DNA of 64,000 nt from Gammaproteobacteria bacterium (GCA_014382695.1 JACNJF010000106.1:15520-79519), one strand, 5' to 3'; positions 1,674 through 38,706 are shown, counted from the stretch's first letter. Numbers and translations: made by a program. The notes: a model not told the origin generated them from the sequence alone.

Positions 1674-3140
1674 TTAATCCTGAGCTTCGAGCTCAACTTC
1701 ATCGATGACGCCATCAGCTGGAGCATTATCGGTTAACTTGACGAAAGTACCGGTTGCCAGCTGATTATAAAAAACAGGTGCCGTGATAACCGCTTCCAGA
1801 CTGTTTTTATAGACCGCCGTTGAACCCACAACGAAGGTCTGACCGAACATGGTGACGCTTTGAACAGTAGCATCGAAAGATTCAACCGGTCCCTGCAGTC
1901 TGGAATCATCAGTATTATCCTTTTTCAGCTCTACTGCGTTGATCACTGATGTGCCATCAAAGAAGGCTTTTACTTCGACAAAATCACCGGCGACCAGCTG
2001 GCTCAGTGTGATGGCCTGATTATTAACCTTGTCATCCAGTTTGGTTTGCTGATTGACCCGGACCGTGATGTTATCGCTGCCGCCAAACAGATTGAAGCTG
2101 GCGCTGCCACTGGTAGCGTTAATGGAGCTGATTTCTGCAAAAACCTTGATTTTCTGGCCTCTGAGTTTGATCTTGTCGGCAAACAAGGTTCCACCTACCA
2201 GTGATCCTTCCGCTTCTACCTTGATGCCATCGGCCAGGGTCAAGGTTGATGGAGTGAATACCGGTGCTGCGGAAAAATCGATCAACTGGCCCTGAATCGT
2301 GAAAGTGCTGGCGGCAGCATTGTAGTCTGCCACGAACCCTTCGATTTCGACTTCATCGGCATTGTCACCCAGAGTATCTTCTCCAGACTCAATTTTGGCG
2401 GCTACCAACGCATCACCCGCGCCGTTTAACAGGCCTTTGACTTCTACATACAGGCCATTGCTTAGGGCGCTGATGCTATCATCCAGTATGGTGGAACTGT
2501 ACTGGATGTTAAAATCCCGGATCGTGAAAGTGTTCGGTGTAGCATCCAGATTAGCAATCACACCCTTGATTTCGACCTGATCGATAGCCGGGATGAAGGT
2601 TCCGCCTGGCTGTCTTTCAATAAAGGTTGCGCTGATGCCGGTGCTGGAAAGCAGGCCACTCACTTCGATAAAATCAGTGTTTGCCAGATCGGTCAGTGTG
2701 AGACCCTGATCGAAGCGTGTATCGGCATTGATTTCAACCTGCTGGCCCAGAATAGTCATCGTCGCCAGAGTCGGGTCTGTCGCATCAATCGCCAGATTGC
2801 TGACAGGTCCTTTCAGTTCATTCTGATAAATCAAACTGGTAGCGGTGCCGGTAACGCCGTCATCATTGACCGTGCCGTTAATCTTGACGCGCATGCCGAT
2901 GCGTAAATCATCCTGGCTGGCAGTCGGATTATCATCGACGTTCATGCTGGTGGTAGTGGTTTCGAATTTCACACCATTCACATACACACTGCCGAAACCG
3001 GTGATGATGCCGGAGGAGATACGGCTGGCCCTTGGCAGGGAGTCTGATGAGTCATCGCTACTGCTGCCGCCGCAACCGCCGATGATTAATGTGGTGGTGA
3101 TTAATGCCGGTAAAAGAGCTTTTTTAAAGGGTGTATTCAT
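1674..3140 (-). CDS. Secreted lipoprotein with about seven tandem DUF5666-like (OB-fold-like) repeats
   Basis: The likely start is the internal MNTPFKKALLPALITTTLIIGGC, giving a signal peptide and lipobox Cys. An S/D-rich linker follows, then a roughly 60-aa unit repeated about seven times (G.I.GFGSVYVNGVKF..., ILGQQVEINADTRF, VEVSGLL, VEIKGVIANLD, VEVKGLLNG, VEIEGFVAD, VEAEGSLVGG, VEVKAFFDG). The ORF track extends to 3209 with an N-terminal extension. Confidence 0.7.
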   Translation of the reverse strand: MNTPFKKALLPALITTTLIIGGCGGSSSDDSSDSLPRASRISSGIITGFGSVYVNGVKFETTTTSMNVDDNPTASQDDLRIGMRVKINGTVNDDGVTGTATSLIYQNELKGPVSNLAIDATDPTLATMTILGQQVEINADTRFDQGLTLTDLANTDFIEVSGLLSSTGISATFIERQPGGTFIPAIDQVEIKGVIANLDATPNTFTIRDFNIQYSSTILDDSISALSNGLYVEVKGLLNGAGDALVAAKIESGEDTLGDNADEVEIEGFVADYNAAASTFTIQGQLIDFSAAPVFTPSTLTLADGIKVEAEGSLVGGTLFADKIKLRGQKIKVFAEISSINATSGSASFNLFGGSDNITVRVNQQTKLDDKVNNQAITLSQLVAGDFVEVKAFFDGTSVINAVELKKDNTDDSRLQGPVESFDATVQSVTMFGQTFVVGSTAVYKNSLEAVITAPVFYNQLATGTFVKLTDNAPADGVIDEVELEAQD

Positions 3141-3321: not shown

Positions 3322-4671
3322 TTATAGCAGGAACAGGGTTGCCATACCGAGAAAGGCGAGGATACCGATCACATCGGTAAAGGTCGTTAATACCACACTG
3401 CCTGCAAGCGCCGGGTCAACTCCGATTCTTTTTAGCAGTACGGGGATGATGGCACCGGCATACGCACCCGCCAAAAGATTGATGACCAGTGACAGCGCAA
3501 TGATCCAGGCCAGATTAAAGTCTTCAAACCAGAGGATGGTAAAGGCGGCGACGACGGCTGCCCATAACAGGCCATTGATCAGGCCGACCGTGATTTCCTT
3601 TTTGACCAGGCTGTTAAAATTGGAACTGCCGAGCTGGCCCAGCGCCAGACCCCGTATCACCAGCGTCAGGGTCTGTGATCCGGCAATGCCTCCCATGCTG
3701 GGCACGATGGTGAGCAGGATCGCCAGTGCAACGATCTTGTCCAGTGCATTTTCGAACAGTCCGATCACCGAGGCGGCCAGAAAGGCGGTGAGCAAATTGA
3801 ATCCCAGCCATACCGCCCTGCGTCTAGAGCTGCTCCAGATCGGCGAAAACAGGTCTTCATCTTCGTGCAGGCCAGCCATGCTGAGTACGGAGTTATCGCC
3901 CTCTTCACGAATAACATCGACCACGTCATCGATCGTGATACGTCCGAGCAGGCGGCCATTTTCATCGACCACGGCGGCGCTGATCAGGTCATTGTCTTCA
4001 AAGATGCGCGCAACATCATCGTCGATCAGCTGTGCCTGCAACGGCAGGATGTCGATATTCATCACCTGTTCGACTCGGATTTCGGTGTCGCTGGTTAACA
4101 GCCTGCTCAGGGAGAGTGTACCGATCAGTTTGTCATAACGATCGGTTACGAAGAGCTGATCGGTATGAGCCGGTAATTCTCCGCGTATACGCAGATAACG
4201 CAGTACCACGTCGAGTGTTACGTCGGCACGAATCGTAATCGGGTTGAGATCCATCAGCCCGCCGGCAGTATCTTCCGGGTAGGCCAGCACCGATTCCAGT
4301 TTTTCGCGTTTTTGCTGATCCAGTATAAATAGTACGCTGACCAGTTTTTCTGCTGGTAGAGAGAGCATCAGGTCAGCCTGATCATCCACATCCGGTAGCG
4401 TATCGATGATTTCTGCAATTTGCTTTGAACTGAATTTTTTCAGTTTCTGCTGTCGCACTTCATCGCTGGTTTCGAGTAGAACAGGGCCCAGGTTAAACGG
4501 GTATACCTGCGGCCAGATCTGTTCGCGTTGCGAGGAAGGAGTGGAGTCAAGAATGTCCGCGATCTGGGCAATATTGATCCGATCCAGAATCTGCGCTATT
4601 GCGGAAGAATCAGACTGTTCGAGTGCTGAAGAAATATCCTGCCGGAGGTTTTCCGTGATCAGATCAGGCAT
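3322..4671 (-). CDS. mgtE: Magnesium transporter MgtE
   Basis: 449 aa with an N-terminal MgtE_N region, tandem CBS region (GRITIDDVVDVI), a C-terminal five-TM domain and the conserved PSMGGIAGSQT motif. Confidence 0.9.
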   Translation of the reverse strand: MPDLITENLRQDISSALEQSDSSAIAQILDRINIAQIADILDSTPSSQREQIWPQVYPFNLGPVLLETSDEVRQQKLKKFSSKQIAEIIDTLPDVDDQADLMLSLPAEKLVSVLFILDQQKREKLESVLAYPEDTAGGLMDLNPITIRADVTLDVVLRYLRIRGELPAHTDQLFVTDRYDKLIGTLSLSRLLTSDTEIRVEQVMNIDILPLQAQLIDDDVARIFEDNDLISAAVVDENGRLLGRITIDDVVDVIREEGDNSVLSMAGLHEDEDLFSPIWSSSRRRAVWLGFNLLTAFLAASVIGLFENALDKIVALAILLTIVPSMGGIAGSQTLTLVIRGLALGQLGSSNFNSLVKKEITVGLINGLLWAAVVAAFTILWFEDFNLAWIIALSLVINLLAGAYAGAIIPVLLKRIGVDPALAGSVVLTTFTDVIGILAFLGMATLFLL

Positions 4672-4789
4672 AAGGGTAGCCAGAAAAAATTAACCTCTAA
4701 ATTTTAGCAAAGTTCTGTTTTATTTGCGGAACTATTAAATCGAAATTGGAGAGACTGGTCGAGTGGTTAGTATCGATAAGGCTGACGGC

Positions 4790-5059
4790 TTACTCTTCTT
4801 CGTCAAAGCGATTATTGATCAGCTTGACGATGGCTTCGAAACAGGCTGTTTCATCGTCACCGTCAATCTCCAGCTTAATCAGGGTGCCCTTGCTCGCCGC
4901 CAGCATCATAACGCCCATGATGCTTTTTGCATTGACCCGGTTACCCTTGTTATCGAGATGCACTGAACTGCCAAATTGAGAGCATAGATTAACCAGCTTG
5001 GAAGCGGCTCGTGCATGTAACCCGAGTTTATTAATGATGGTGATGTCTTGAGTAATCAT
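4790..5059 (-). CDS. ptsO: HPr-family phosphocarrier (NPr/PtsO-like)
   Basis: 89 aa with GLHARAA placing His at position 15 and NAKSIMG placing Ser at position 46, so both the EI site and the HprK target serine are kept. It is the last gene of the rpoN-linked PTS-Ntr cluster. Confidence 0.85.
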   Translation of the reverse strand: MITQDITIINKLGLHARAASKLVNLCSQFGSSVHLDNKGNRVNAKSIMGVMMLAASKGTLIKLEIDGDDETACFEAIVKLINNRFDEEE

Positions 5060-5179
5060 AGTAATAGCAGTTGTATTGTTTTATTGCTGATGCTGAAATT
5101 TCAGTAAATCAGTTTGCGGGTCATTATCTGGCGCATCAATATACAACAGATATATTATTTAGCCTATTACGCTTTTAGC

Positions 5180-8655: not shown

Positions 8656-10134
8656 TCAAAAGAGACGTTTACGCTCGTTGGATGGCGGTATGTTCATCGC
8701 TTCACGATATTTTGCAATCGTGCGTCGTGCGACGTTGATACCCTGGTCATCCAGCAAAGCGGCAATCTTGTTATCACTTAACGGTTTTTCGGGCTTTTCA
8801 GCAGAGATCAGCTTTTTGATAATCGCTCTGATAGCCGTAGCCGAGCATTCCCCTCCATCCGCAGTACCAACGTGGCTGGAAAAGAAAAATTTAAACTCCA
8901 GGATGCCCCGCGGAGTGTGCATGAACTTCATCGTGGTTACCCTGGAAATGGTGGATTCATGCATTTCCAGTTCTTCGGCAACATCTCTTAACACCATCGG
9001 TTTCATCGCTTCATCACCGAATTCAAAATAGCCCTTCTGCCGTTCTACAATCGATGTGGCGACCCGCAGCAGGGTGTCGTTGCGACTTTGCAGGCTTTTT
9101 ATAAACCACTTGGCTTCCTGAATATGGTCACGCAGGTAATTATTCTGTTCGCTATTAACGCCGCGCTTAACCAGCTTCGAGTAGGTTTCATTGACCCGCA
9201 GACGCGGTGCATTTTCGCGGTTTATCTTTACCGACCATTGCCCGTTAACTTTTGCAACATACACATCCGGCTTGATGTATTCAGCATGTGTGGTGCTCAC
9301 CAGTTGACCCGGATGCGGGTTGGTGGTCTGGATCAGTTTAATGATTTCCGATAGCTCAGCATCATTCGCCTGCAGTCTTCGCTTCAGCACCGCCATATCA
9401 TTTTTGGCCAGATATTCCAGATATCGATCAACCAGAGCCAGTGCTTTTTTCAGGTGCGGGGTTGCCGGATCATATTGCTCGAGCTGAATCTTCATGCATT
9501 CTGAAGGGGTTCTTGAGCCGACCGCGAGTGGATCAAAGTGCTGGATAAAATGCAGCATGGCTTCAATTTCGTCGAGTTCAACATCGGGATGCTGGGGGAG
9601 AACGCCCTGGTGTATTTCCTGTAAGGTTTCTGTCAGGTAGCCTCTGTCATCGATGCCGTCGATAATGGCGAGGCCTATATCCTTGTCGGTTTCGGTGAGA
9701 TGGGCGCAATCCAGTTGCCAGATCAGATGGTCGTACAGTTCATCGGTTGTTTTTGCCTGATTTTCAAACAGGTCCCGGTAATCTTCGCCGTTATTGGAGG
9801 CGGGCTGAGACATGGATGCGGTGGCACTGGTGTCATAAAAGTCATCCCAGCCGGTATCCATGTCGAGTTCATCCGGCAGGGTCTGCTCTGAGCGGTCTTC
9901 GCTCAGGGAGTCGGATGAAGATTTAAGATCAATGTCTTCTTTATCGGCGTTGCTGTCCTCGGCCGAGGCTTCGGACAGGTTGTCGTCCTGTTCGAGTAAA
10001 GGATTAGAGTCCAGTGTCTGCTGAATTTCGGCCTGTAGTTCGATAGATGAAAGCTGGAGTAGGCGTATTGCCTGCTGCAGTTGAGGGGTCATGGTCAGGC
10101 TTTGACCAATCTTCAGTTGCAAGCTTTGCTTCAT
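8656..10134 (-). CDS. rpoN: RNA polymerase sigma-54 factor RpoN
   Basis: 492 aa with a Q/L-rich N-terminal region I, an acidic region II, and a C-terminal RpoN box ARRTIAKYRE. Confidence 0.95.
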   Translation of the reverse strand: MKQSLQLKIGQSLTMTPQLQQAIRLLQLSSIELQAEIQQTLDSNPLLEQDDNLSEASAEDSNADKEDIDLKSSSDSLSEDRSEQTLPDELDMDTGWDDFYDTSATASMSQPASNNGEDYRDLFENQAKTTDELYDHLIWQLDCAHLTETDKDIGLAIIDGIDDRGYLTETLQEIHQGVLPQHPDVELDEIEAMLHFIQHFDPLAVGSRTPSECMKIQLEQYDPATPHLKKALALVDRYLEYLAKNDMAVLKRRLQANDAELSEIIKLIQTTNPHPGQLVSTTHAEYIKPDVYVAKVNGQWSVKINRENAPRLRVNETYSKLVKRGVNSEQNNYLRDHIQEAKWFIKSLQSRNDTLLRVATSIVERQKGYFEFGDEAMKPMVLRDVAEELEMHESTISRVTTMKFMHTPRGILEFKFFFSSHVGTADGGECSATAIRAIIKKLISAEKPEKPLSDNKIAALLDDQGINVARRTIAKYREAMNIPPSNERKRLF

Positions 10135-10186
10135 GTTAAATTATAAGCGTATTCCGCATGTTTTATTATTGTTCTCATAGTTACCT

Positions 10187-10933
10187 TTATAGCTTAAAAT
10201 CCTTTCCCAAGTAAATCTTTCTTACAACTTTATCTGCCAGGATATGATCCGGGTCACCTTCAGCCAGCAGCGTACCCTCTCCCATTACATAGGCCCGATC
10301 ACACACTCCCAGGGTTTCCCGAACATTATGATCGGTGATCAGAATGCCAATGCCACGTTCAGCCAGCTGGCGGATAATGGACTGGATATCGATCACTGAA
10401 ATCGGGTCAACACCCGCAAACGGTTCGTCGAGTAATATGAACTGTGGTTCATTCGCCAGCGCGCGTGCGATTTCGACGCGCCGCCGTTCCCCGCCAGAGA
10501 GTGAAATGCCAAGGCTTTTACGGATGTGCTGAACCTGAAATTCATCCAGCAGGTATTCCAGCTTGTCCGCCTGCTGTTCCGCCGATAGATCTTTTCTAAG
10601 TTGCAAAATGGCGCGGATATTATCTTCAACGGATAAGCCTCTGAAGATAGAGGATTCCTGTGGCAGGTAGCCTATGCCTTTCTGTGCGCGTTTATGCATC
10701 GGCAGTCGGGTGATGTCCTGGCCATTCAGGGTGATAGATCCGAAATCACTGTTGACGAGGCCGACAATCATGTAAAAGCAGGTGGTTTTACCGGCGCCGT
10801 TAGGGCCCAGCAGGCCAACGATCTGACCGCTCTGTACCTGCAGGCTGACGGATTTGACGACGTTACGGCCCTTATAGCTTTTGGCCAGCTGTGTCGCCTG
10901 TAATTGATGGCTGTGCGGGCTGTCTGCACTCAT
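10187..10933 (-). CDS. lptB: LPS export ABC transporter ATP-binding protein LptB
   Basis: 248 aa ABC ATPase with Walker [10 protein letters not shown], signature LSGGERRR and Walker B ILLDEP. It lies immediately upstream of rpoN as in the E. coli locus. Confidence 0.9.
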
Positions 10934-11460
10934 TTGGGCAGGGACGGGTTCGCTGTACCGGTCAGGTTTTTGGGCTGGATTAACATACGCACGCGGTTTT
11001 CACCTTTTTTGCTACCGGCCCTGAGTGCATCGGTATCGGTGTTGACGCTGATCCAGTCACCCTCAATGGTATCGCGGTCGCTGTTAAAGCGAGCTTCGCC
11101 TTCCAGGTTAAGCAGCAGTTGATTGTCGGTATAGATGATCTTTCTGGCTGAGCCAGTGAGCTTTTGATTCTTGTCACTGAGCTGTTTCAGCGAGGCCGGG
11201 CTGCCTTCGATTTCCAGCCGTAACAGGTCATTATTACTGTCGAAGAAAAAAACAATCTTGTCAGCGATGATATGCAGGCTGCCCTGATGCATCTCAACAT
11301 TACCCTGATAGATACTGATATGCTGCGCATCATCGATATCGAGTTTATCGGCCTGAATATCAATCGCCTGAGCCCGATCGGTGGATAAGGCGTTGACGTA
11401 TATAGGAAAGCTAAGCAGTGAGATAATCACTGAAAGTAAGGGTATATTAACTCGCTTCAT
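10930..11460 (-). CDS. lptA: LPS transport periplasmic protein LptA
   Basis: OstA-like beta-jellyroll protein. The probable start is [24 protein letters not shown] (signal peptide) at complement 11460; the ORF track extends to 11505. It overlaps lptB by 4 nt. Confidence 0.8.
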
Positions 11461-12040
11461 GTAGTTCTCTGGTTTTTTTATTGGCCTGATGGGTGGCTTT
11501 GACACGATTAAATTGATAATAGTTTTTATCGATATTCAGTGTGGCACCTGCTGCCTGTAAATGGATGGTGCTGGAAACCAGTGTTAGTGCTGCCGGAATT
11601 TCGATCAGATTGCTCTGTGGTCTGAGTATCATCCGTTCTGTATTGAGGCGCATCGGGTCCTGCGCTGAATTGCGTAGCATTTCGACCTGATGCTGTAGTT
11701 CGAACACTTCCTGCTGATGCTGCAGGGTTCCGTTGCGGGCCTGGATTCTCCAGCTCGACTGCTCACCGTTGAGTTGTAAATCCGGTTGTTGAATCTGTGA
11801 AATATCTTCACGGATAAAGTGCTCCAGATAAGGGGATAATAGTTGATAATGAAGGGTGCCCTGCTGATTCATCGCGCGATAGTTTACCTGGCTCAGATAG
11901 TAATCGATATTATCCGGTAGTAATAAGGCCTCGGTCGTTGTGGGGGCGAGCCTGCGGTCATAAAACCAGCCAATACCGATGGCCAGTGAAACCAGCCCAA
12001 TAACCGTGAGCATGAAGCCGCTGTTGACTCTCTGGCTCAT
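11447..12040 (-). CDS. lptC: LPS export protein LptC
   Basis: 197 aa with a single N-terminal TM anchor (FMLTVIGLVSLAIGIGWFY) and a periplasmic domain, positioned between kdsC and lptA. Confidence 0.8.
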   Translation of the reverse strand: MSQRVNSGFMLTVIGLVSLAIGIGWFYDRRLAPTTTEALLLPDNIDYYLSQVNYRAMNQQGTLHYQLLSPYLEHFIREDISQIQQPDLQLNGEQSSWRIQARNGTLQHQQEVFELQHQVEMLRNSAQDPMRLNTERMILRPQSNLIEIPAALTLVSSTIHLQAAGATLNIDKNYYQFNRVKATHQANKKTRELHEAS

Positions 12041-32174: not shown

Positions 32175-33020
32175 ATGTCAGGCGTACTTTATATTGTAGC
32201 CACCCCGATCGGTAACCTTGATGATATCACTCTGCGCGCGATTGAGGTGCTCGGTAGTGTCGATCTGGTAGCGGCCGAAGATACCCGTCATAGCCAGCAT
32301 TTAATGGCGCATCTGGGGCTGCGCAAAAAGATGTTGTCGCTGCATGAGCACAATGAACAGGATCGAGTGAATCAGATCCTCGGATTGCTGGCGCAGGGCC
32401 AGCAGATTGCACTGGTTTCGGATGCTGGAACCCCGCTGATTTCGGATCCTGGCTTTCCGCTGGTCAGGGCGGTGATCGAAGCCGGATATAAGGTCACTCC
32501 GATACCGGGTGTCAGCAGCATCATCGCCGCGCTCAGTGCAGCTGGTCTGGCCACCGATTCGTTTAGCTATCATGGCTTTCTGGCGCATAAAAATGCAGAC
32601 CGGTTGACGCGTCTGCAGGCGCTGAAAAAAATCGGCGGTACGCATGTGCTGCTGGAGTCTACCCATCGTATCGAACGCCTGCTGGAGCAGATCGACGAAT
32701 TGATGCCCGCCTCCCAGCTGGTGCTGGCGAAAGAACTGACCAAGCGCCATGAGTCCTTTATCCGCGGTACGGCACAGCAATGTCTGCAGATCTTTAGCGA
32801 TGACCCGCTGCGAAAGAAGGGCGAGTTCGTGGTGCTGATGTATCATCCTGCACCCGAAGAGGACGAGTCGGTACGACTTAATGCACAGAAACTACTGCAA
32901 CTGCTGATGGCTGAAATGCCATTAAAAAAGGCCGTCAAACTAGCGGTTGAAATCAGCGGCGGCAAGAAAAATGAACTGTACCGACAGGCATTGCTGCTTA
33001 GCGAAAACGAGCAAACCTGA
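32175..33020 (+). CDS. rsmI: 16S rRNA (cytidine1402-2'-O)-methyltransferase RsmI
   Basis: 281 aa; MSGVLYIVATPIGNLDDITLRAIEVL is the tetrapyrrole-methylase-fold RsmI N-terminus. Confidence 0.9.
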   Translation: MSGVLYIVATPIGNLDDITLRAIEVLGSVDLVAAEDTRHSQHLMAHLGLRKKMLSLHEHNEQDRVNQILGLLAQGQQIALVSDAGTPLISDPGFPLVRAVIEAGYKVTPIPGVSSIIAALSAAGLATDSFSYHGFLAHKNADRLTRLQALKKIGGTHVLLESTHRIERLLEQIDELMPASQLVLAKELTKRHESFIRGTAQQCLQIFSDDPLRKKGEFVVLMYHPAPEEDESVRLNAQKLLQLLMAEMPLKKAVKLAVEISGGKKNELYRQALLLSENEQT

Positions 33021-33128
33021 GCCGGCCTGGACCTCCTCTTTGGCTGTAAGGTATTACGCCGTCCCCTTGTTTCAGGGGTGGTGAAACCCGGTGCTAATGG
33101 CATAGACTAGCGACTCCTGGACCCGAGC

Positions 33129-34019
33129 TTGAGATTCTTGAAAGGTTTATCTGCCCCCTTCAAACTGACTTTACCTGCGCTTCCACCTCGGCAGTCGATA
33201 CTGGCTTTACTGACACTGGTTTTTGTGCTTAATGCGCTGCTGATTTACTTCATGCTGGAGCAGCCGCGTTTTGGTATTTCGCTGCAACTGGTGGACGGTA
33301 AAATCTTTGCGACTGAAACCAGCCCGTCCTCCCTGGACGATCAGCAGGTGCCTCGTGAATTGACTGCGCTGGCTACTGCAGAATACCGGTTCGAGCTTGA
33401 AGCTGAAGATTTACTCGAAGAGCCCGATTTGCTGACCCGCTACAGTGAATATAACCGTTTCATGCAACGCCAGTCGATGCTGTTCGATTTACTGCAATAC
33501 CCTCGCGTCGAACTGTTCTGGGCAGATCAGGCTAGCTCTTCGTTGGCGCCGCGCAAAACCGTCTGGAGTGATTTACCCCTGATGTTCTGGTTTCAGTTGA
33601 TCGTTGCCAGTTTCAGTCTGCTAGTGGGGGCCGCTGTCTGGTTGTTCCGACAACGCGACCGTTCCGCACTACATTATTTTCTGATTGGCGTTTTCCTCGC
33701 GCTGGTCATCTTCCCCGCTGCCATCTATAGCAGCCGGGAACTGGCGCTGGATGGCGAACTGTTCAGGGTGTTATCGGTTGTTGATCATCTTGGGCTGTAC
33801 ATCGTGATGGCGGCCATTGTGTCGCTGGTGTGGTGCTATCCACAGCCTTTATGGACATTCCCGTTCCCGGCTTTGTTTTATTCGCTGATGTATCTGTGCT
33901 GGGTGGTGGATACCGTGCAGTGGTTTCCTGATCTCGATGTGAGCACCAGAATTGTTCCCCTGCTGATGCTCGTACTCGGTTTTGTACTGTTGATTGTGCA
34001 CTGGAAGCGATCTGCCTGA
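33129..34019 (+). CDS. Polytopic membrane protein, the probable N-terminal sensor module of the downstream kinase
   Basis: 296 aa with a TTG start, one N-terminal TM, a roughly 110-aa extracytoplasmic segment, then about five TM helices. It ends at a TGA that is in frame with, and one codon upstream of, the TTG start of the next ORF. Confidence 0.5.
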   Translation: MRFLKGLSAPFKLTLPALPPRQSILALLTLVFVLNALLIYFMLEQPRFGISLQLVDGKIFATETSPSSLDDQQVPRELTALATAEYRFELEAEDLLEEPDLLTRYSEYNRFMQRQSMLFDLLQYPRVELFWADQASSSLAPRKTVWSDLPLMFWFQLIVASFSLLVGAAVWLFRQRDRSALHYFLIGVFLALVIFPAAIYSSRELALDGELFRVLSVVDHLGLYIVMAAIVSLVWCYPQPLWTFPFPALFYSLMYLCWVVDTVQWFPDLDVSTRIVPLLMLVLGFVLLIVHWKRSA

Positions 34020-34022
34020 AAT

Positions 34023-35318
34023 TTGCTCTACCGTCAGTCGATCAAATGGTTCCTGCTGGTTATAGTCGCTGGCAGTGGCTTGTTTGTAGGGGTGGTTTTT
34101 GTGCCACCGTTATTCGGGTCCGCGCCGCTGATTTCTCAGGGACTCGCTTTTGTCGCTTTCCTCAGTATTTACCTGAGTCTGGCCATCGGTGTCATCCGTT
34201 ACCAGCTGTTCGAGCTGGATCGCTGGTGGTTCAAGGTGTGGATCTGGATTGCAGTCGGCATCATACTGATTGGTTTTGATATTCTATTCATTTCGCTGCT
34301 GAACCTGTCTCAGGACCAATCCCTCTGGCTGGCACTGGGTATTACCGGCTGGCTTTACTTTCCACTACGCCAGTGGCTGCTTACCCGGTTTCTTTCGATC
34401 CGCGACAGTTCTCTTGAGAGTTATCTACCGATGGTTGTTCGCAGTATTGCACAGGCCAGAACGGCTGATGATCTGCTGGCTGGAAACCGCGCCTGTCTGG
34501 TAACGATCTTTTCACCATTGTCGACGTTGATGAGGGATGAGCTCGATCCGCTGGTGGCTATCTATGAAAACGGACTCAGTCTGCATGTACCGTTCCCGCG
34601 TTCCAGCCAGACCCTGTTTCTAAAATGTCCGGGACAGGGCCGTCAGTTATTTCAATCTGCCGATGTGGAGATTGTGCAGGCATTAATGAATCTGTTCGAA
34701 CAGGCCTATATCGCGCGCGAAGCCAGAGACGATGCGATTCGTCAGGAGCGGGAACGCATCAAGCAGGATATGCACGATACGCTGGGCGGGCGTCTGTTAT
34801 CGATTATGCGCCAGAATACAGAGCCGGAAAGCGCGCTGATTGCGACTTCCGCCTGGCGTGAATTACGCGACATTCTGACCGCTCTGGAAGGTAAAAAAGC
34901 GCCACTGATGCATGTTATTGATCAATGGCATAAGGATGCACGACAGCAGGCGGAACAGTCAAAGGTTGCTCTGGAATGGTTAATAGAGAATGAATTGCGC
35001 GATAAGTGCTGGGTGATCGATGGAAATCAACGACTCAATCTGGGCCAGATTCTACGCGAATCCCTGACCAACGCGCTGCGCCACTCTAACACCAGGCGGA
35101 TTAAGGTAGCGTTTAGCGCCGACCAGCATGAACTGGTTCTGAGCGTGAATAACGATGGCGTGAATGCGCCTCCTGCAACCTGGGTAGCAGGTCGTGGCCT
35201 GCATCATATTCGCAAACGCGCACACAAGCTGGATGCTTCGCTCGAATGGAATATGCAGGGAAATAACGCGGTTGAATTGAGCTTGAGGCTGACAATGAGG
35301 GAAGAGTGTAATGGATAA
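34023..35318 (+). CDS. Sensor histidine kinase, HisKA_3/NarX-type (multi-TM N-terminus)
   Basis: 431 aa with a TTG start and four N-terminal TM helices. The H-box is ERERIKQDMHDTLGGRL (HisKA_3) and the HATPase_c N-box region is LRESLTNALRHSN. The stop overlaps the regulator start by 8 nt. Confidence 0.75.
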   Translation: MLYRQSIKWFLLVIVAGSGLFVGVVFVPPLFGSAPLISQGLAFVAFLSIYLSLAIGVIRYQLFELDRWWFKVWIWIAVGIILIGFDILFISLLNLSQDQSLWLALGITGWLYFPLRQWLLTRFLSIRDSSLESYLPMVVRSIAQARTADDLLAGNRACLVTIFSPLSTLMRDELDPLVAIYENGLSLHVPFPRSSQTLFLKCPGQGRQLFQSADVEIVQALMNLFEQAYIAREARDDAIRQERERIKQDMHDTLGGRLLSIMRQNTEPESALIATSAWRELRDILTALEGKKAPLMHVIDQWHKDARQQAEQSKVALEWLIENELRDKCWVIDGNQRLNLGQILRESLTNALRHSNTRRIKVAFSADQHELVLSVNNDGVNAPPATWVAGRGLHHIRKRAHKLDASLEWNMQGNNAVELSLRLTMREECNG

Positions 35319-35937
35319 AATATTAGTAGTTGAAGATCAGACTGAAATACGTGCCTGGATTATCCGATTTGTGGCAGAGGTGTTTACCCACGCCCGCTTT
35401 GTGGAGGCCGTTAGCGTGGAGCAGGCGCGGCAGTATATCGATAGCTCGATCGATCTGTTATTGGTCGATCTAAGTCTGCCGGATGGTAGAGGGGATGAAT
35501 TAATCCGGCTTTTCAAGCATATCAATCCCGATGTTCCGTGTGTGGTGATTTCGAGTTTTGAGGACGATGATTTTTTGTTTCCTGCGCTCAAGGCTGGCGC
35601 CGATGGTTATCTATTGAAGGATCAGACAGAAGAGGAACTAAAGTCGCTGTTGATGGGCATTGTCAATGGGAAGCCCCCACTTTCGCCGGCAATCGCTTAT
35701 CGTCTGTTTGATTTTTTTCGGAAACCGGCCGATGACGAGACAGAGGTGAAACTGACCGACAGAGAAAAGGAAACGCTGCGACTGATCGCAAAGGGTTATA
35801 GCGTCAAGGAGTGCGCACGCAAGATGGAAATAAGTCCACATACCGTGGCGGGTTACATCAAGGAAGTGTACCGCAAACTGCAGGTCAATTCGCGCGCTGA
35901 GGTCGCGCTGGAAGCTGCGCGCCTGGGATTGAACTGA
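35311..35937 (+). CDS. Two-component response regulator, NarL/FixJ (LuxR HTH) family
   Basis: 208 aa with a receiver domain (MDKILVVEDQ..., acceptor Asp in LLLVDLSLPDG, conserved K in LLKD) and a C-terminal LuxR-type HTH (TDREKETLRLIAKGYSVKECARKMEISPHTVAGYIKEVYRKL). Confidence 0.85.
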   Translation: MDKILVVEDQTEIRAWIIRFVAEVFTHARFVEAVSVEQARQYIDSSIDLLLVDLSLPDGRGDELIRLFKHINPDVPCVVISSFEDDDFLFPALKAGADGYLLKDQTEEELKSLLMGIVNGKPPLSPAIAYRLFDFFRKPADDETEVKLTDREKETLRLIAKGYSVKECARKMEISPHTVAGYIKEVYRKLQVNSRAEVALEAARLGLN

Positions 35938-35963
35938 GTCGATCCAGCATACAGAATTCGCCT

Positions 35964-35985
35964 GTACCCCTGATTCAAGGGGTAC
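35964..35985. promoter_or_regulatory. Perfect 8-bp-arm palindrome GTACCCCT-GATTCA-AGGGGTAC between the regulator gene and the lipoprotein gene
   Basis: Inverted repeat read directly, lying upstream of a TATATAAT -10 (about 36017-36024) and GAGGTGG RBS of the 36042 gene. A related CCCCT-TGTTTC-AGGGG hairpin is at 33064-33079, upstream of the sensor gene. It could be a terminator or an operator. Confidence 0.4.
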
Positions 35986-36041
35986 ATTCCTGTTCCAGAC
36001 GGGTTTAGATTAAGTGCTTCTATATAATCTGAGGTGGCGAC

Positions 36042-37523
36042 ATGAAGTTAATCCAATCCAGTTTTGTCAAACTATTTATTCTGCTGATGGCAGGTTTTAT
36101 ATTATCGGCCTGCGGAGGATCGGACAACGACGACGCTCCAGCCAATACTACAGCGACCCTGAGTGGCACTGCAGCGGTGGGAGCGGCTCTGGCCAGTCGA
36201 CAGGTGACTATAGTCGATAAGAGTGGTGCATCAGTCACCACTACGACGGATGCGAATGGTAAATACAGTGTAACGGTAACGGTATCGGCAAAACCATTTA
36301 TGCTTAAGGTGGAAACCGATGGTGAACCGTTGTATTCGTTTGCAGCGGAAGCAGGTATCAGCAATATAACGCCTCTGACCAATCTGGCGCTGCACGAAGC
36401 GAACAGGAATGGCAGTACCTATACGCCTTTAAGTAGTCTGTTTAGTTCGTTTAAGGATTCATATGCCGGAATTACCGAAACCAGGCTGAATGAAGCGAAA
36501 GCAAAAGTGAATGCCAATCTGGCCAGTGTCTATTCCAGCGCCGGCGTGGCTAATGGTTTTGATTTTTTTAAAACCGCTTTTAATGCGGACGGTAGTGGTA
36601 TCGATCAGGTGCTGGATAATGCGGGTATCAGCATCGACAGTAGTGACCCGGGTATTATCACTATCAATGTTACCGGGGCTTCTGCATTTTCTTTCAACCC
36701 CGGTATAGATTTCAGTCAGTTTGTGGTTGGCGGTGGAGCGGGCAGCGGTGGCGACATCGGGACACTGCCTTCCTATGTGGCTAGTCAGGTTGTGGACATG
36801 GAATTCTGTTGTGCGGCGGCAGGTGCCCCCTATAGTAACGGCGAGGTCGTTAAATTCACTTTCAGCGGTAGCGGTATGCTGTTTCTGACCGAGTCGTTTA
36901 CCGTTGTGGCGCCAACCTTTACCGATAACAGTAGTGCGACGCCTGGACCTTATATATGGGATAACGGAACCTATAAATATGAGCTGTCGGTACTGAATAA
37001 TGCGATTCATGAAGTGAATGTGTTTGCCTCTACAGCGGGTACCTTCCTCGGCCAGTTTACCCCGGTTACGGGTAATGGTGGTGGCAGCACTACTGGCGCG
37101 CCGGAAATTCCGGCGGGAGAGTTCGGGCTGGCATTTAAGCTGGATGGCGTGGTAACTCAGAGAACCACAGCAACCCCAACCTTACCCGGTATTGCACTGG
37201 CCATCACAGGCCTGGGCACTGAACGCTATCTGGCTTTTCTGGGAACCGGTGTTACCGATCAGTTAAGAATGATCCCGATCAATACCACGGGAACCTATAC
37301 CTGTGGAGCGGGCCCGAATTCATTCCGCCTGGTCGAAATGTGGCTCAGCCTGCCTGGATCGCATAAAGCCGATGCGAGCAAAGGAAGCTGCACCATTAGC
37401 GTCACTTCCGTCGGTAGTGTGTATGCAGGAACGTTCTCCGGCACCGTTATTAGTGATAGTGACGGTGTGACTGCGGTTTCAATTACTGAAGGTGTTTTCA
37501 GGGTGGACGGATCTTCTTTGTAA
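36042..37523 (+). CDS. Secreted lipoprotein of unknown function (N-terminal Ig-like/CarboxypepD_reg-like segment)
   Basis: 493 aa with signal peptide and lipobox (FILSAC), a TTDANGKYSVTVTV motif typical of CarboxypepD_reg/Ig-like beta-sandwiches, and a Gly/Thr/Ser-rich, non-membrane remainder. Confidence 0.6.
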   Translation: MKLIQSSFVKLFILLMAGFILSACGGSDNDDAPANTTATLSGTAAVGAALASRQVTIVDKSGASVTTTTDANGKYSVTVTVSAKPFMLKVETDGEPLYSFAAEAGISNITPLTNLALHEANRNGSTYTPLSSLFSSFKDSYAGITETRLNEAKAKVNANLASVYSSAGVANGFDFFKTAFNADGSGIDQVLDNAGISIDSSDPGIITINVTGASAFSFNPGIDFSQFVVGGGAGSGGDIGTLPSYVASQVVDMEFCCAAAGAPYSNGEVVKFTFSGSGMLFLTESFTVVAPTFTDNSSATPGPYIWDNGTYKYELSVLNNAIHEVNVFASTAGTFLGQFTPVTGNGGGSTTGAPEIPAGEFGLAFKLDGVVTQRTTATPTLPGIALAITGLGTERYLAFLGTGVTDQLRMIPINTTGTYTCGAGPNSFRLVEMWLSLPGSHKADASKGSCTISVTSVGSVYAGTFSGTVISDSDGVTAVSITEGVFRVDGSSL

Positions 37524-37544
37524 ATAAAAAATACTGATTTTTAA

Positions 37545-37570
37545 AGTCCGCGTAATGCGGGCTTTTTTTT
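37545..37570 (+). terminator. Rho-independent terminator after the lipoprotein gene
   Basis: CCGC-GTAAT-GCGG GC-rich stem followed by T8 (GCGGGCTTTTTTTT). Confidence 0.55.
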
Positions 37571-37597
37571 GCCCCCAATTCAGGTATCATGCGCGCC

Positions 37598-37941
37598 AAG
37601 TCAGCTGGATAATCGCTGGCACCGTCAGGTGCTGGAGGAAAGTCCGGGCTCCACAGGGCAGGGTGCCAGGTAACGCCTGGGAGGCGCGAGCCTACGGAAA
37701 GTGCCACAGAAAATATACCGCCGGACAGCTTGCTGGACGGTAAGGGTGAAATGGTGCGGTAAGAGCGCACCGCGCGACTGGCAACAGTCGTGGCAGGGAA
37801 AACCCCACCCGGAGCAAGACCAAATAGGAGAGCTATGGTGCTGCCCGCACTGCTTTCGGGTTGGTTGCATGAGGGTCCTGGTGACAGGGCTCCCAGATGA
37901 ATGATTATCCTCGACAGAACCCGGCTTACAGGCTGACTTAT
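37598..37941 (+). ncRNA. rnpB: RNase P RNA (bacterial type A, M1 RNA)
   Basis: GGAGGAAAGTCCGGGCTCCACAGGGCAGGGTGCCAGGTAACGCCTGGG, GGTAAGGGTGAAATGGTGCGGTAAGAGCGCACC, CCACCCGGAGCAAGACCAAATAGG and a 3' ACAGAACCCGGCTTA are near-identical to the conserved cores of E. coli M1 RNA. The P1 arms AGUCAGC / GCUGACU pair. All ORFs called across this interval are non-coding. Confidence 0.93.
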
Positions 37942-38174
37942 CTAAATTCCACCTTTCCCGTCTGCTCATTTTTTACCCTGAGCGGCGGGAAAATGTGGTA
38001 ACCCATGTTAATTTTTTCAGAATTTTCCCCGTTACATTAGTAGTACTTAATATTTCACTTTAACTATGCCTGTTTAATATATGTTTTTAAATGGGATTGC
38101 CCGTTCGTCATAAAAAAGTTTGCTAAGTCCTTGTTGTTATTAAAGAAATTCTATTCTGCCAAGTGGTTTTTTAC

Positions 38175-38253: not shown

Positions 38254-38706
38254 GTGCTGAAATTCAGAGGGGCTTCAAATTTATCTTTAGATGCGAAAGG
38301 CAGAGTGGTTCTGCCTGCGCGCTATCGAGAGCTGCTGTCTGAAATCTGCAATGGCCAGCTGGTGGTGACTATCGATATCGACCAGCCCTGCCTGCTGATT
38401 TACCCGTTGAATGAATGGGAAATCGTCGAACAAAAAATTAATGCTCTGCCCGGTGGTGTGAATAAAGCGGTCAGACGCATTCAACGCAAACTGATTGGTT
38501 ATGCCACTGATATCGAGGTCAACGAAAGCGGTCGTCTGCTGTTGACGGCTCCCCTGAGAAATTATGCCAGGCTGGACAAAAAAGTTGTGCTGATCGGGCA
38601 GGGCAATAAGTTTGAGCTGTGGGATGAGCAGTTGTGGGACAAGCTGTGCATGGAAGAAGATGATGATGAGGATATTCCTGCGGCGCTGGCGGAGTTGTCG
38701 TTATGA
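38254..38706 (+). CDS. mraZ: Transcriptional regulator MraZ
   Basis: 150 aa with a GTG start, collinear with E. coli MraZ: FRG...LDAKGRVVLPARYRE...QLV.TID...CLLIYPL.EWEI.EQK...LIGQGNKFELWDE. Confidence 0.9.
   Translation: MLKFRGASNLSLDAKGRVVLPARYRELLSEICNGQLVVTIDIDQPCLLIYPLNEWEIVEQKINALPGGVNKAVRRIQRKLIGYATDIEVNESGRLLLTAPLRNYARLDKKVVLIGQGNKFELWDEQLWDKLCMEEDDDEDIPAALAELSL

Follow-up and report, generated by a model that had tools for sequence, protein, structure and literature searches.

A two-component cassette at the rsmI-rnpB junction of an uncultured gammaproteobacterium, with candidate CCCC-N8-GGGG operators and a lipoprotein gene as its likely output

In a stretch of 64,000 nt from a Gammaproteobacteria bacterium (GCA_014382695.1 JACNJF010000106.1:15520-79519; the whole stretch is referred to as the window), the genes rsmI and rnpB are separated by a block (33021-37597) that encodes a sensor histidine kinase, a response regulator and a lipoprotein and that contains two related palindromes. 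What do these palindromes do, and how did the genes come to lie at this junction? An earlier note, made from the sequence alone, had described the block as a signaling cassette inserted between rsmI and rnpB, with the palindromes as candidate operators or simple terminators and the adjacent lipoprotein gene as the probable output.

In the account that we favor and consider probable, the block is a NarL/FixJ-type two-component regulon unit, old and frequently lost at the rsmI-rnpB junction, in which the palindromes are operators that activate the lipoprotein gene and the sensor is broken by a TGA codon. A HisKA_3-type sensor with ten transmembrane helices would perceive an envelope or periplasmic signal and phosphorylate the NarL-family regulator; a regulator dimer would then bind CCCC-N8-GGGG palindromes (half-site TACCCCT) centered at about -43.5 and recruit RNA polymerase to promoters without a -35 box. 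Transcription would probably rise for the sensor-regulator operon itself, for the adjacent gene encoding a lipoprotein with an N-terminal domain of the PgcA type (PgcA-N) and for at least one unlinked paralogue. In the lineage of the window, the circuit has most likely lost its coupling to the signal through the nonsense codon. The cassette itself would be an old occupant of the junction in a clade of uncultured Gammaproteobacteria, where it was lost or replaced repeatedly.

Conserved palindromes and promoter geometry

Four open reading frames (ORFs) lie on the same strand between rsmI and rnpB, at 33129-34019, 34023-35318, 35311-35937 and 36042-37523. The first two belong to one sensor histidine kinase gene of the HisKA_3 type (33129-35318, + strand; about 726 aa if read through), as judged from the ORFs, Pfam and intact orthologues, and are discussed below together with the TGA that parts them. 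The third, which shares its first 8 nt with the end of the kinase gene, encodes a NarL/FixJ-type response regulator of 208 aa (35311-35937, +), with a Response_reg domain at residues 4-113 (E 5e-17) and a GerE domain at residues 147-200 (E 2e-16), both exceeding their cut-offs, and with the phospho-acceptor motif VDLSLPDG visible in the translation. Its best NCBIfam match, NarL (NF007935), scored 101.9 bits where the equivalog cut-off is 250, and we regard the protein as a member of the NarL/FixJ family, not as a NarL orthologue. The HisKA_3/HATPase_c and Response_reg/GerE assignments support the reading as a two-component cassette.

Palindrome 1, CCCC-TTGTTTCA-GGGG (CCCCT-TGTTTC-AGGGG; CCCCTTGTTTCAGGGG), is located at 33063-33078 (+), 43 nt past the rsmI stop codon, and is a candidate operator for the sensor-regulator operon; its sequence was as previously described, and its coordinates lie one base to the left of the earlier 33064-33079. 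Palindrome 2, GTACCCCT-GATTCA-AGGGGTAC (GTACCCCTGATTCAAGGGGTAC), was matched exactly at 35964-35985 (+; center 35974.5) and is a candidate operator for the lipoprotein promoter. It can be read as G-TACCCCT-GATTCA-AGGGGTA-C, with a CCCC-N8-GGGG core at 35967-35982. The two palindromes do not bracket the block, as had been proposed: the first precedes the sensor gene, and the second is internal, between the regulator and lipoprotein genes.

With two occurrences in the window, CCCCTN6AGGGG exceeds the 0.02 expected, and a count of two was reached in none of 100 shuffles. For comparison, we used 58 loci from species-representative genomes, collected with an LpoA probe, in which rsmI, rnpB, mraZ and the cassette proteins were mapped. 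Look-ups of kinase homologues added the loci L061/L062 and L063/L076, and a metagenome scan added L075; the comparative material consists throughout of metagenome-assembled genomes (MAGs) and metagenome contigs. Among the 58 LpoA-anchored loci, CCCCT-N(4-7)-AGGGG was found in none of the 57 loci without the cassette, while L003, which carries it, has the motif in exactly the two equivalent places. Equivalents of palindrome 1 were present in L003 and L075, and none at the cassette-less junctions. Equivalents of palindrome 2, between the stop codon of the regulator gene and the next gene, were present in L003, L059, L061, L063, L064, L065 and L075. A related palindrome followed the regulator gene in every cassette examined, though the kinases are only 43-63% identical to the L003 kinase; the site reads CCCCCTGATTCAGGGGG in L061, CCCCCTGTTCAGGGGG in L063 and CCCCCTTATTC(A)GGGGG in L059 and L064.

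Because orthologous sites show N5 spacing or longer C/G runs, the strict form CCCCT-N6-AGGGG was replaced by a 16-bp frame, CCCC-N8-GGGG; the window sites match it in its minimal form, 4+8+4. For the family palindrome, the consensus is (TA)CCCCCTG-NN-CAGGGGG(TA). Around the kinase family, the frame is enriched about tenfold: its density per 10 kb was 0.75 in 89 loci with such a kinase (803 kb; 80 of the loci derive from the metagenome scan, and some are mutually related) and 0.07 in the 57 loci without the cassette (861 kb). More than half of the matches in the kinase-family loci (33 of 60) immediately preceded the kinase gene or followed the regulator gene.

A hexamer of the form TANNNT was found at a fixed distance behind the palindromes. 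Measured from the palindrome center to the start of the hexamer, 16 of 128 oriented sites had it at +32 and 9 at +33, compared to about 1.2 per offset elsewhere. In the window, TAGATT (36006-36011, +) is the -10-like hexamer assigned to the lipoprotein promoter. Its first base lies 32 nt downstream of the center of palindrome 2, and its position is conserved: the same offset is occupied by TAAATT in L003, L059, L064 and L075, by TAGAGT in L061, by TACATT in L063 and by TAGATT in L065. The putative -10 hexamer of the sensor operon, TAGACT (33103-33108, +), starts 33 nt after the center of palindrome 1 and was assigned from the pile-up in the family. If the hexamer is the -10 element, the palindrome center falls at about -43.5 (with the site reaching from about -36 to -51) and a G-run takes the place of the -35 box, which would be the geometry of an activator-dependent promoter.

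The sequence TATATAAT, proposed before as the -10 element of the lipoprotein gene, is present at 36021-36028 (+). We rejected it as the regulated -10 element, as it lies 49 nt from the palindrome center, ends 2 nt before the Shine-Dalgarno sequence GAGG (36031-36034, +) and is without an equivalent at orthologous loci. It may provide a second, constitutive promoter.

An operator in this position could also serve a repressor that occludes the -35 region, a reading that we consider unlikely. The site overlaps the expected position of the -35 hexamer, and proteins of the NarL family are able to repress, as at frdA (PMC4549865). However, no -35 box is recognizable for a repressor to cover, as the stretch is filled by the G-run, which is typical of activator-dependent promoters, and the site center at about -43.5 matches the 7-2-7 sites from which NarL activates napF (-40 to -49) and yeaR (-38 to -47) (PMC4549865). 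Judged from sequence alone, activation is the mode that we propose at these promoters.

The gene behind palindrome 2 (36042-37523, +) encodes a lipoprotein of 493 aa, as supported by the ORF, an alignment of homologues, a structure model and a profile hidden Markov model (HMM). It has a lipobox LSAC (MKLIQSSFVKLFILLMAGFILSAC-GG) with Cys24 as the lipidation residue, which is invariant in 26 homologues, and the protein is lipid-anchored and probably surface-exposed. Pfam yielded sub-threshold matches only (CarboxypepD_reg, 19.9 bits vs. a cut-off of 32.3). The N-terminal domain (about residues 33-222) is a homologue of the non-heme PgcA domain from Geobacter sulfurreducens (PDB 9i0d/9i0e): the structure model (mean predicted local distance difference test score, pLDDT, 77.7) matched 9i0d in Foldseek with E 7e-10 (6.9e-10), a template modeling score of 0.64 on the target and 24% identity, and the profile HMM of the homologues matched it at positions 33-222 with E 1.6e-27. 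Inspection of the 493-aa translation revealed no CXXCH heme motif. A Gly-rich linker at residues 230-238 leads into a variable C-terminal region.

The two parts of the lipoprotein differ in their conservation. Residues 37-229 are 84% identical to protein P0004 of the closest relative, and nothing is alignable past the linker; the protein of L003 (4447-5979) likewise shares the N-terminal half only. In L063 (compared at 9952-11964), window residues 237-344 have their counterpart in a separate downstream gene, and the C-terminal ~140 aa recur in L059, L061, L063 and L064. We take the protein to be a modular mosaic of a conserved anchor-proximal domain and exchangeable C-terminal parts. An LpqH-like fold for the C-terminal half was suggested by weak Foldseek matches (E ~0.02), on which we did not rely.

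With an HMM of the PgcA-N domain, 21 of 88 kinase-family loci gave a match, compared to 0 of the 57 background loci. The organism of the window also has an unlinked PgcA-N-like lipoprotein gene (P0023, H8E21_10810; 4001-5077 of locus L155) with no two-component genes nearby. The only CCCC-N8-GGGG palindrome in the 9 kb of that locus, CCCCCTATACAGGGGGG (3907-3923), lies ~80 nt before the ATG of this paralogue and ~330 nt downstream of a hairpin with a T-run behind the preceding gene; it is followed by TATAAT at offset 27 and TATGGT at offset 32. At L079, a palindrome near 3085, CCCCCATGATTGCGGGG, is situated between a divergent PgcA-N-like lipoprotein gene and a regulator-kinase operon, with TANNNT at +33 and +32 on its two sides, and looks like the center of a bidirectional pair of regulated promoters. 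In distant kinase-family members, lipoprotein-like proteins of another, unrelated family (330-344 aa) are also encoded directly behind palindromes (L110, ~1461; L129, ~3123; L139, ~7758).

What follows the palindromes elsewhere includes genes for FG-GAP repeat proteins, for a PEP-CTERM protein and for the second family of lipoproteins, as well as the two-component operon, so that the regulon appears to combine exported or envelope proteins with autoregulation. For the window, the adjacent lipoprotein gene is the most likely output of the cassette, as the earlier note had supposed.

History of the cassette at the junction

Five diverged lineages (the window, L003, L075, L061/L062 and L063/L076) have the cassette in the same place between rsmI and rnpB, with rsmI directly upstream of the kinase gene. 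The cassette is absent from L001 and L002, the closest relatives by LpoA (70-71% identity), in which rsmI and rnpB are separated by just 67-71 nt, and present in the same place in L003 (LpoA 67%). The divergence of the cassette parallels that of its flanks in the four genomes compared. Between the window and L003, the identities are 67% for LpoA and 72% for RsmI vs. 68% for the kinase and 84% for the regulator; between the window and L061, 58% and 61% vs. 50% and 63%; and between L061 and L063, 77% and 77% vs. 74% and 82%. A neighbor-joining tree of LpoA and RsmI places L003 between L001 and L002, both of which lack the cassette, and has the L061/L063 clade branching outside another cassette-less group. 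Ancestral presence followed by at least three losses would be the simplest history. Under such a history, there would be no integrase, duplication or compositional signal to explain.

The earlier note had described the cassette as inserted, and a recently acquired islet put into an empty junction of the window genome would agree with the 67-71-nt junctions of L001 and L002 and with the fact that the cargo of the junction differs between lineages. We consider such an origin quite improbable in view of the five lineages that carry the cassette at the same junction, the parallel divergence of cassette and flanks and the position of L003 in the flank tree. Moreover, the composition profile revealed no anomaly in GC content or skew and no island signature, the GC content of the block (0.48-0.53) being that of its flanks. 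No integrase or transposase was found among the ORFs of the block by ORF calling and Pfam, and a repeat search around it for target-site duplications, terminal inverted repeats and direct repeats returned short chance matches only, the sole meaningful pair (I6) being the two palindromes themselves. Thus, the reported lack of an integrase, transposase and target-site duplication is borne out by ORF, domain and repeat searches. The idea of a recent insertion is not supported; the description as accessory remains apt in the sense of patchy presence, with L001, L002 and other relatives lacking the cassette. An ancestral origin, which had been raised as the opposite case in the form of presence across the whole order, is in part borne out by the five lineages.

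The flanks themselves were as described: rsmI (32175-33020, +; ORF call) on the left and rnpB (37597-37944, +), a class A RNase P RNA (Rfam RF00010 RNaseP_bact_a, 348 bits) outside the cassette, on the right of four same-strand genes, followed by mraZ (start at 38254, +). The gene order rsmI-rnpB-mraZ holds across the 58-locus set. The block is closed by an intrinsic terminator (37543-37573, +) with the features of a Rho-independent signal, a GC-rich stem-loop (9-10-bp stem at 37543-37565) and a U-tract (T8 in the DNA), immediately upstream of the rnpB -10 element TATCAT (37585-37590, +). A similar element of GCGGGC and a T-run stands directly upstream of the rnpB -10 element in L003 and also in the cassette-less L043, L004 and L006. 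The cassette is therefore located between the rsmI stop codon and what appears to be the old rsmI terminator.

Unrelated cargo without mobility genes was observed at the junction in L005, L009-L018, L024, L025, L029, L034, L040, L014, L044 and L056. It includes an ~8-kb set of prkA-yeaH(DUF444)-spoVR with a rhodanese, an aldehyde:ferredoxin oxidoreductase and an ABM protein, of which the last two also occur by themselves. Other junctions contain an SBP-PAS-GGDEF-EAL protein of 1482 aa, a multicopper oxidase plus a GGDEF-EAL protein, or an outer-membrane beta-barrel protein. A beta-lactamase-like protein in L056 and an O-methyltransferase-like ORF in L044 were recognized by eye only. The "empty" junctions of L007 and L004 (298 and 341 nt) contain ~26-nt inverted repeats around ~170 nt, e.g., CCACGAAGCACACGAAGGGCACGAAG ... 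CTTCGTGCCCTTCGTGTGCTTCGTGG, which look like small insertions of the type of miniature inverted-repeat transposable elements (MITE) or repetitive extragenic palindromes (REP).

Hairpins and the nonsense codon

Several points weigh against the proposed account. The frame CCCC-N8-GGGG is our own reconciliation of a spacer between C-run and G-run that varies from 6 to 8 nt. No site is present upstream of the kinase in L061 and L063, where the kinase gene begins 12-50 nt past rsmI, and at site 1 of L003 no TANNNT is found at the expected offset. The tree of LpoA and RsmI is a neighbor-joining distance tree of two proteins from MAGs, without support values. All claims of binding and activation are drawn from comparative sequence. 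In the window strain, the circuit may be inoperative owing to the nonsense allele. Lastly, the RNA hairpin of palindrome 2 is stable (-16.5 kcal/mol, z -3.5) and terminator-like in a consensus scan, and it could in addition dampen transcription that reads through from the regulator gene.

The last point leads to the reading of both palindromes as RNA hairpins only, i.e., as intrinsic terminators of rsmI and of the regulator operon, to which their positions just downstream of stop codons would conform. We nevertheless judge this reading very improbable. Neither palindrome is followed by a U-tract (TGGTGAAACC follows site 1 and ATTCCTGTTCC site 2), the orthologous sites also lack T-runs, and hairpin 1 is no better than shuffled sequences (z -1.3). 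Loci with proteins of just 25-60% identity retain the C-run and G-run of the stem, without compensatory changes, and the -10-like hexamer is fixed at +32/33 behind them. The L079 palindrome is not a terminator, because it lies between divergent genes with a correctly spaced hexamer in both directions, and the site before the paralogue at L155 comes ~330 nt after the hairpin and T-run of the preceding gene. Cassette-less relatives have no such hairpin behind rsmI. This comparison lends good support to an operator role of the palindromes over a terminator role. Of the two roles first offered for them, it is the operator, with its conserved sequence and position, its about tenfold enrichment, its fixed distance to the -10-like hexamer and its recurrence before an unlinked paralogue, that we retain.

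The sensor gene had been described as split. Its two ORFs share one frame and are parted by a single in-frame TGA at 34017-34019 (+), and the orthologues are single ORFs of 705-735 aa: L003 has an intact ORF of 725 aa reading ...HWNRSAGNALYRQ..., where the window has HWKRSA*NLLYRQ. Of 28 kinase-family clusters found, 26 have lengths of 691-735 aa. When the 296-aa N-terminal fragment was used as query, it retrieved 617 representatives of clusters at 50% identity, nearly all of 700-750 aa, with the module at the N terminus. The TGA is common to the window and six independent assemblies with 99.9-100% identity (L068-L070 and L072-L074; ENA and Logan, several samples). In a further assembly, L071 (Logan SRR29139947), a single base of 6036 departs from the window sequence; the codon there is GGA (Gly) instead of TGA, so that a protein of 726 aa is encoded without interruption. 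Gly is also the residue of the orthologues. The TGA is thus not an assembly error, as the window and six assemblies carry it and L071 differs by a single base, and we interpret it as a nonsense allele of one gene, created by a recent G-to-T change and segregating.

That the codon is an assembly error after all, or is recoded or read through to give a full-length sensor, is exceedingly unlikely: UGA is the leakiest of the stop codons and the allele is widespread, but seven independent assemblies agree on it, TGA is the ordinary stop of rsmI and of the regulator gene in the same block, and the change from the intact GGA is a simple one without sign of a recoding context. Recoding of UGA, to selenocysteine or to glycine, was dropped on the grounds of the normal TGA stops nearby and the one-base change to GGA in L071. 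Low-level read-through is conceivable.

An AlphaFold model of an intact orthologue (mean pLDDT 81.8) has ten transmembrane helices (TM1-TM10) and a periplasmic beta domain, in the order TM1, a beta-rich periplasmic domain of ~90 aa, TM2-TM6, TM7-TM10, a small cytoplasmic alpha/beta domain, the dimerization and histidine phosphotransfer (DHp) domain and the catalytic domain. The TGA falls into the loop between the predicted TM6 and TM7, by which signal input in the window strain is probably abolished or altered. A C-terminal kinase fragment might be restarted at GTG 34101, behind an AGGGG motif resembling a Shine-Dalgarno sequence. The sensor gene has two candidate starts: the ORF begins with TTG at 33129, and the gene callers of other assemblies and the L075 orthologue (MKGLLSS...) favor TTG at 33138.

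In Pfam, the kinase fragment of the window scored slightly below threshold for HisKA_3 (21.2 bits, cut-off 24) and for HATPase_c (25.5 bits, cut-off 26.4). The His-Asp of the H-box, the Asn of the N-box and the Gly of the G-box are invariant across the 26-member kinase alignment, and the NCBIfam matches were NarQ, UhpB, NarX and LiaS. Taken together with a superposition on DesK and VraS, these results support membership among the HisKA_3-type sensor kinases. For the input module, Pfam and NCBIfam searches with the 296-aa N-terminal fragment returned no family, and Foldseek of the full kinase model against PDB matched the cytoplasmic kinase core only, with no match for the module.

A second, independent nonsense lesion was observed in a different gene of the cassette: in L061 (and also in L062), the lipoprotein gene (9891-11018) is broken by an in-frame TAG (10248-10250) at a position that is Tyr in relatives. 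The repeated decay, comprising the sensor TGA, the TAG of L061/L062 and the loss of whole cassettes in close relatives, fits a module under relaxed or fluctuating selection.

Relation to known systems and implications

The closest well-known systems are NarX/NarQ-NarL/NarP of Escherichia coli, which likewise combine a HisKA_3 kinase with a receiver-GerE regulator and among which NarL and NarQ/NarX were the best NCBIfam matches. The NarL heptamer consensus is TACYYMT, and site 2 of the window contains it as an inverted pair (TACCCCT ... AGGGGTA). These heptamers are those of the engineered high-affinity NarL site TACCCCTAAAGGGGTA (TACCCCT-AA-AGGGGTA; PMC4549865). The spacer differs: it is 2 bp in the 7-2-7 site and 6 bp in both window sites, giving CCCC-N4-GGGG vs. 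CCCC-N8-GGGG. The equivalog scores of the window proteins are also far below the cut-offs (101.9 vs. 250 and 42.8 vs. 553 bits), and the targets are respiratory operons there and lipoprotein genes here. NarX has two transmembrane helices and a P-box, while the window sensor has ten helices and an unrelated periplasmic domain.

In its DHp and catalytic core, the window-type kinase superposes with DesK (of DesK-DesR) and VraS with a Foldseek probability of 1.0; unlike in these proteins, residues 1-420, the membrane and periplasmic input part, have no solved or Pfam-described relative. The operators of GacA/UvrY, TGTAAG-N6-CTTACA, are inverted repeats for a NarL/FixJ regulator with a 6-bp spacer, too, and lie upstream of activated promoters; their half-site differs, their targets are small RNA genes, and the sensor architecture is unrelated to that of the window cassette.

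PgcA is a lipid-anchored extracellular triheme cytochrome whose first domain has no predicted cofactor and is cut off from the heme domains by proteolysis (PMC11520253). The window lipoprotein resembles it in the N-terminal lipid anchor, the homologous domain of ~190 aa and the flexible linker to further domains, and differs from it in lacking the heme CXXCH motifs and the (PT)x repeats and in its beta-rich, unrelated C-terminal part. Limited literature searches found no paper on this kinase family, this operator or the junction; those on rsmI/rnpB/mraZ gave no functional information on the junction, and those on the first domain of PgcA gave none beyond its domain architecture.

A bolder reading, which we put forward as speculative and on balance doubtful, is that of a widespread, undescribed regulon. 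It would unite the ten-helix sensor family, the CCCC-N8-GGGG operator and PgcA-like carrier lipoproteins with swapped C-terminal cargo, and its lesions and losses, together with the C-terminal swaps, would reflect fluctuating or negative frequency-dependent selection. If this were true, agents such as phages or grazers would be selecting on an exposed surface structure, and the lesions would be more than mere decay.

The kind of system, its mode of regulation and its patchy distribution are ordinary, and the view of such systems is unchanged by our results. The specific operator, the link to a PgcA-N lipoprotein and the natural nonsense polymorphism are useful leads. For a sizeable family of sensor kinases known only from uncultured bacteria, there is now a concrete candidate operator (half-site TACCCCT, at about -43.5) and a candidate regulon. 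The lipoprotein link hints that the N-terminal domain of PgcA may be a general anchor or carrier module, and the rsmI-rnpB junction is documented as a site of recurrent turnover in gene content without signatures of mobile elements. Finally, the GGA and TGA variants represent a natural, near-isogenic pair of sensor alleles, and metatranscriptomes of the same study could reveal what the system controls.

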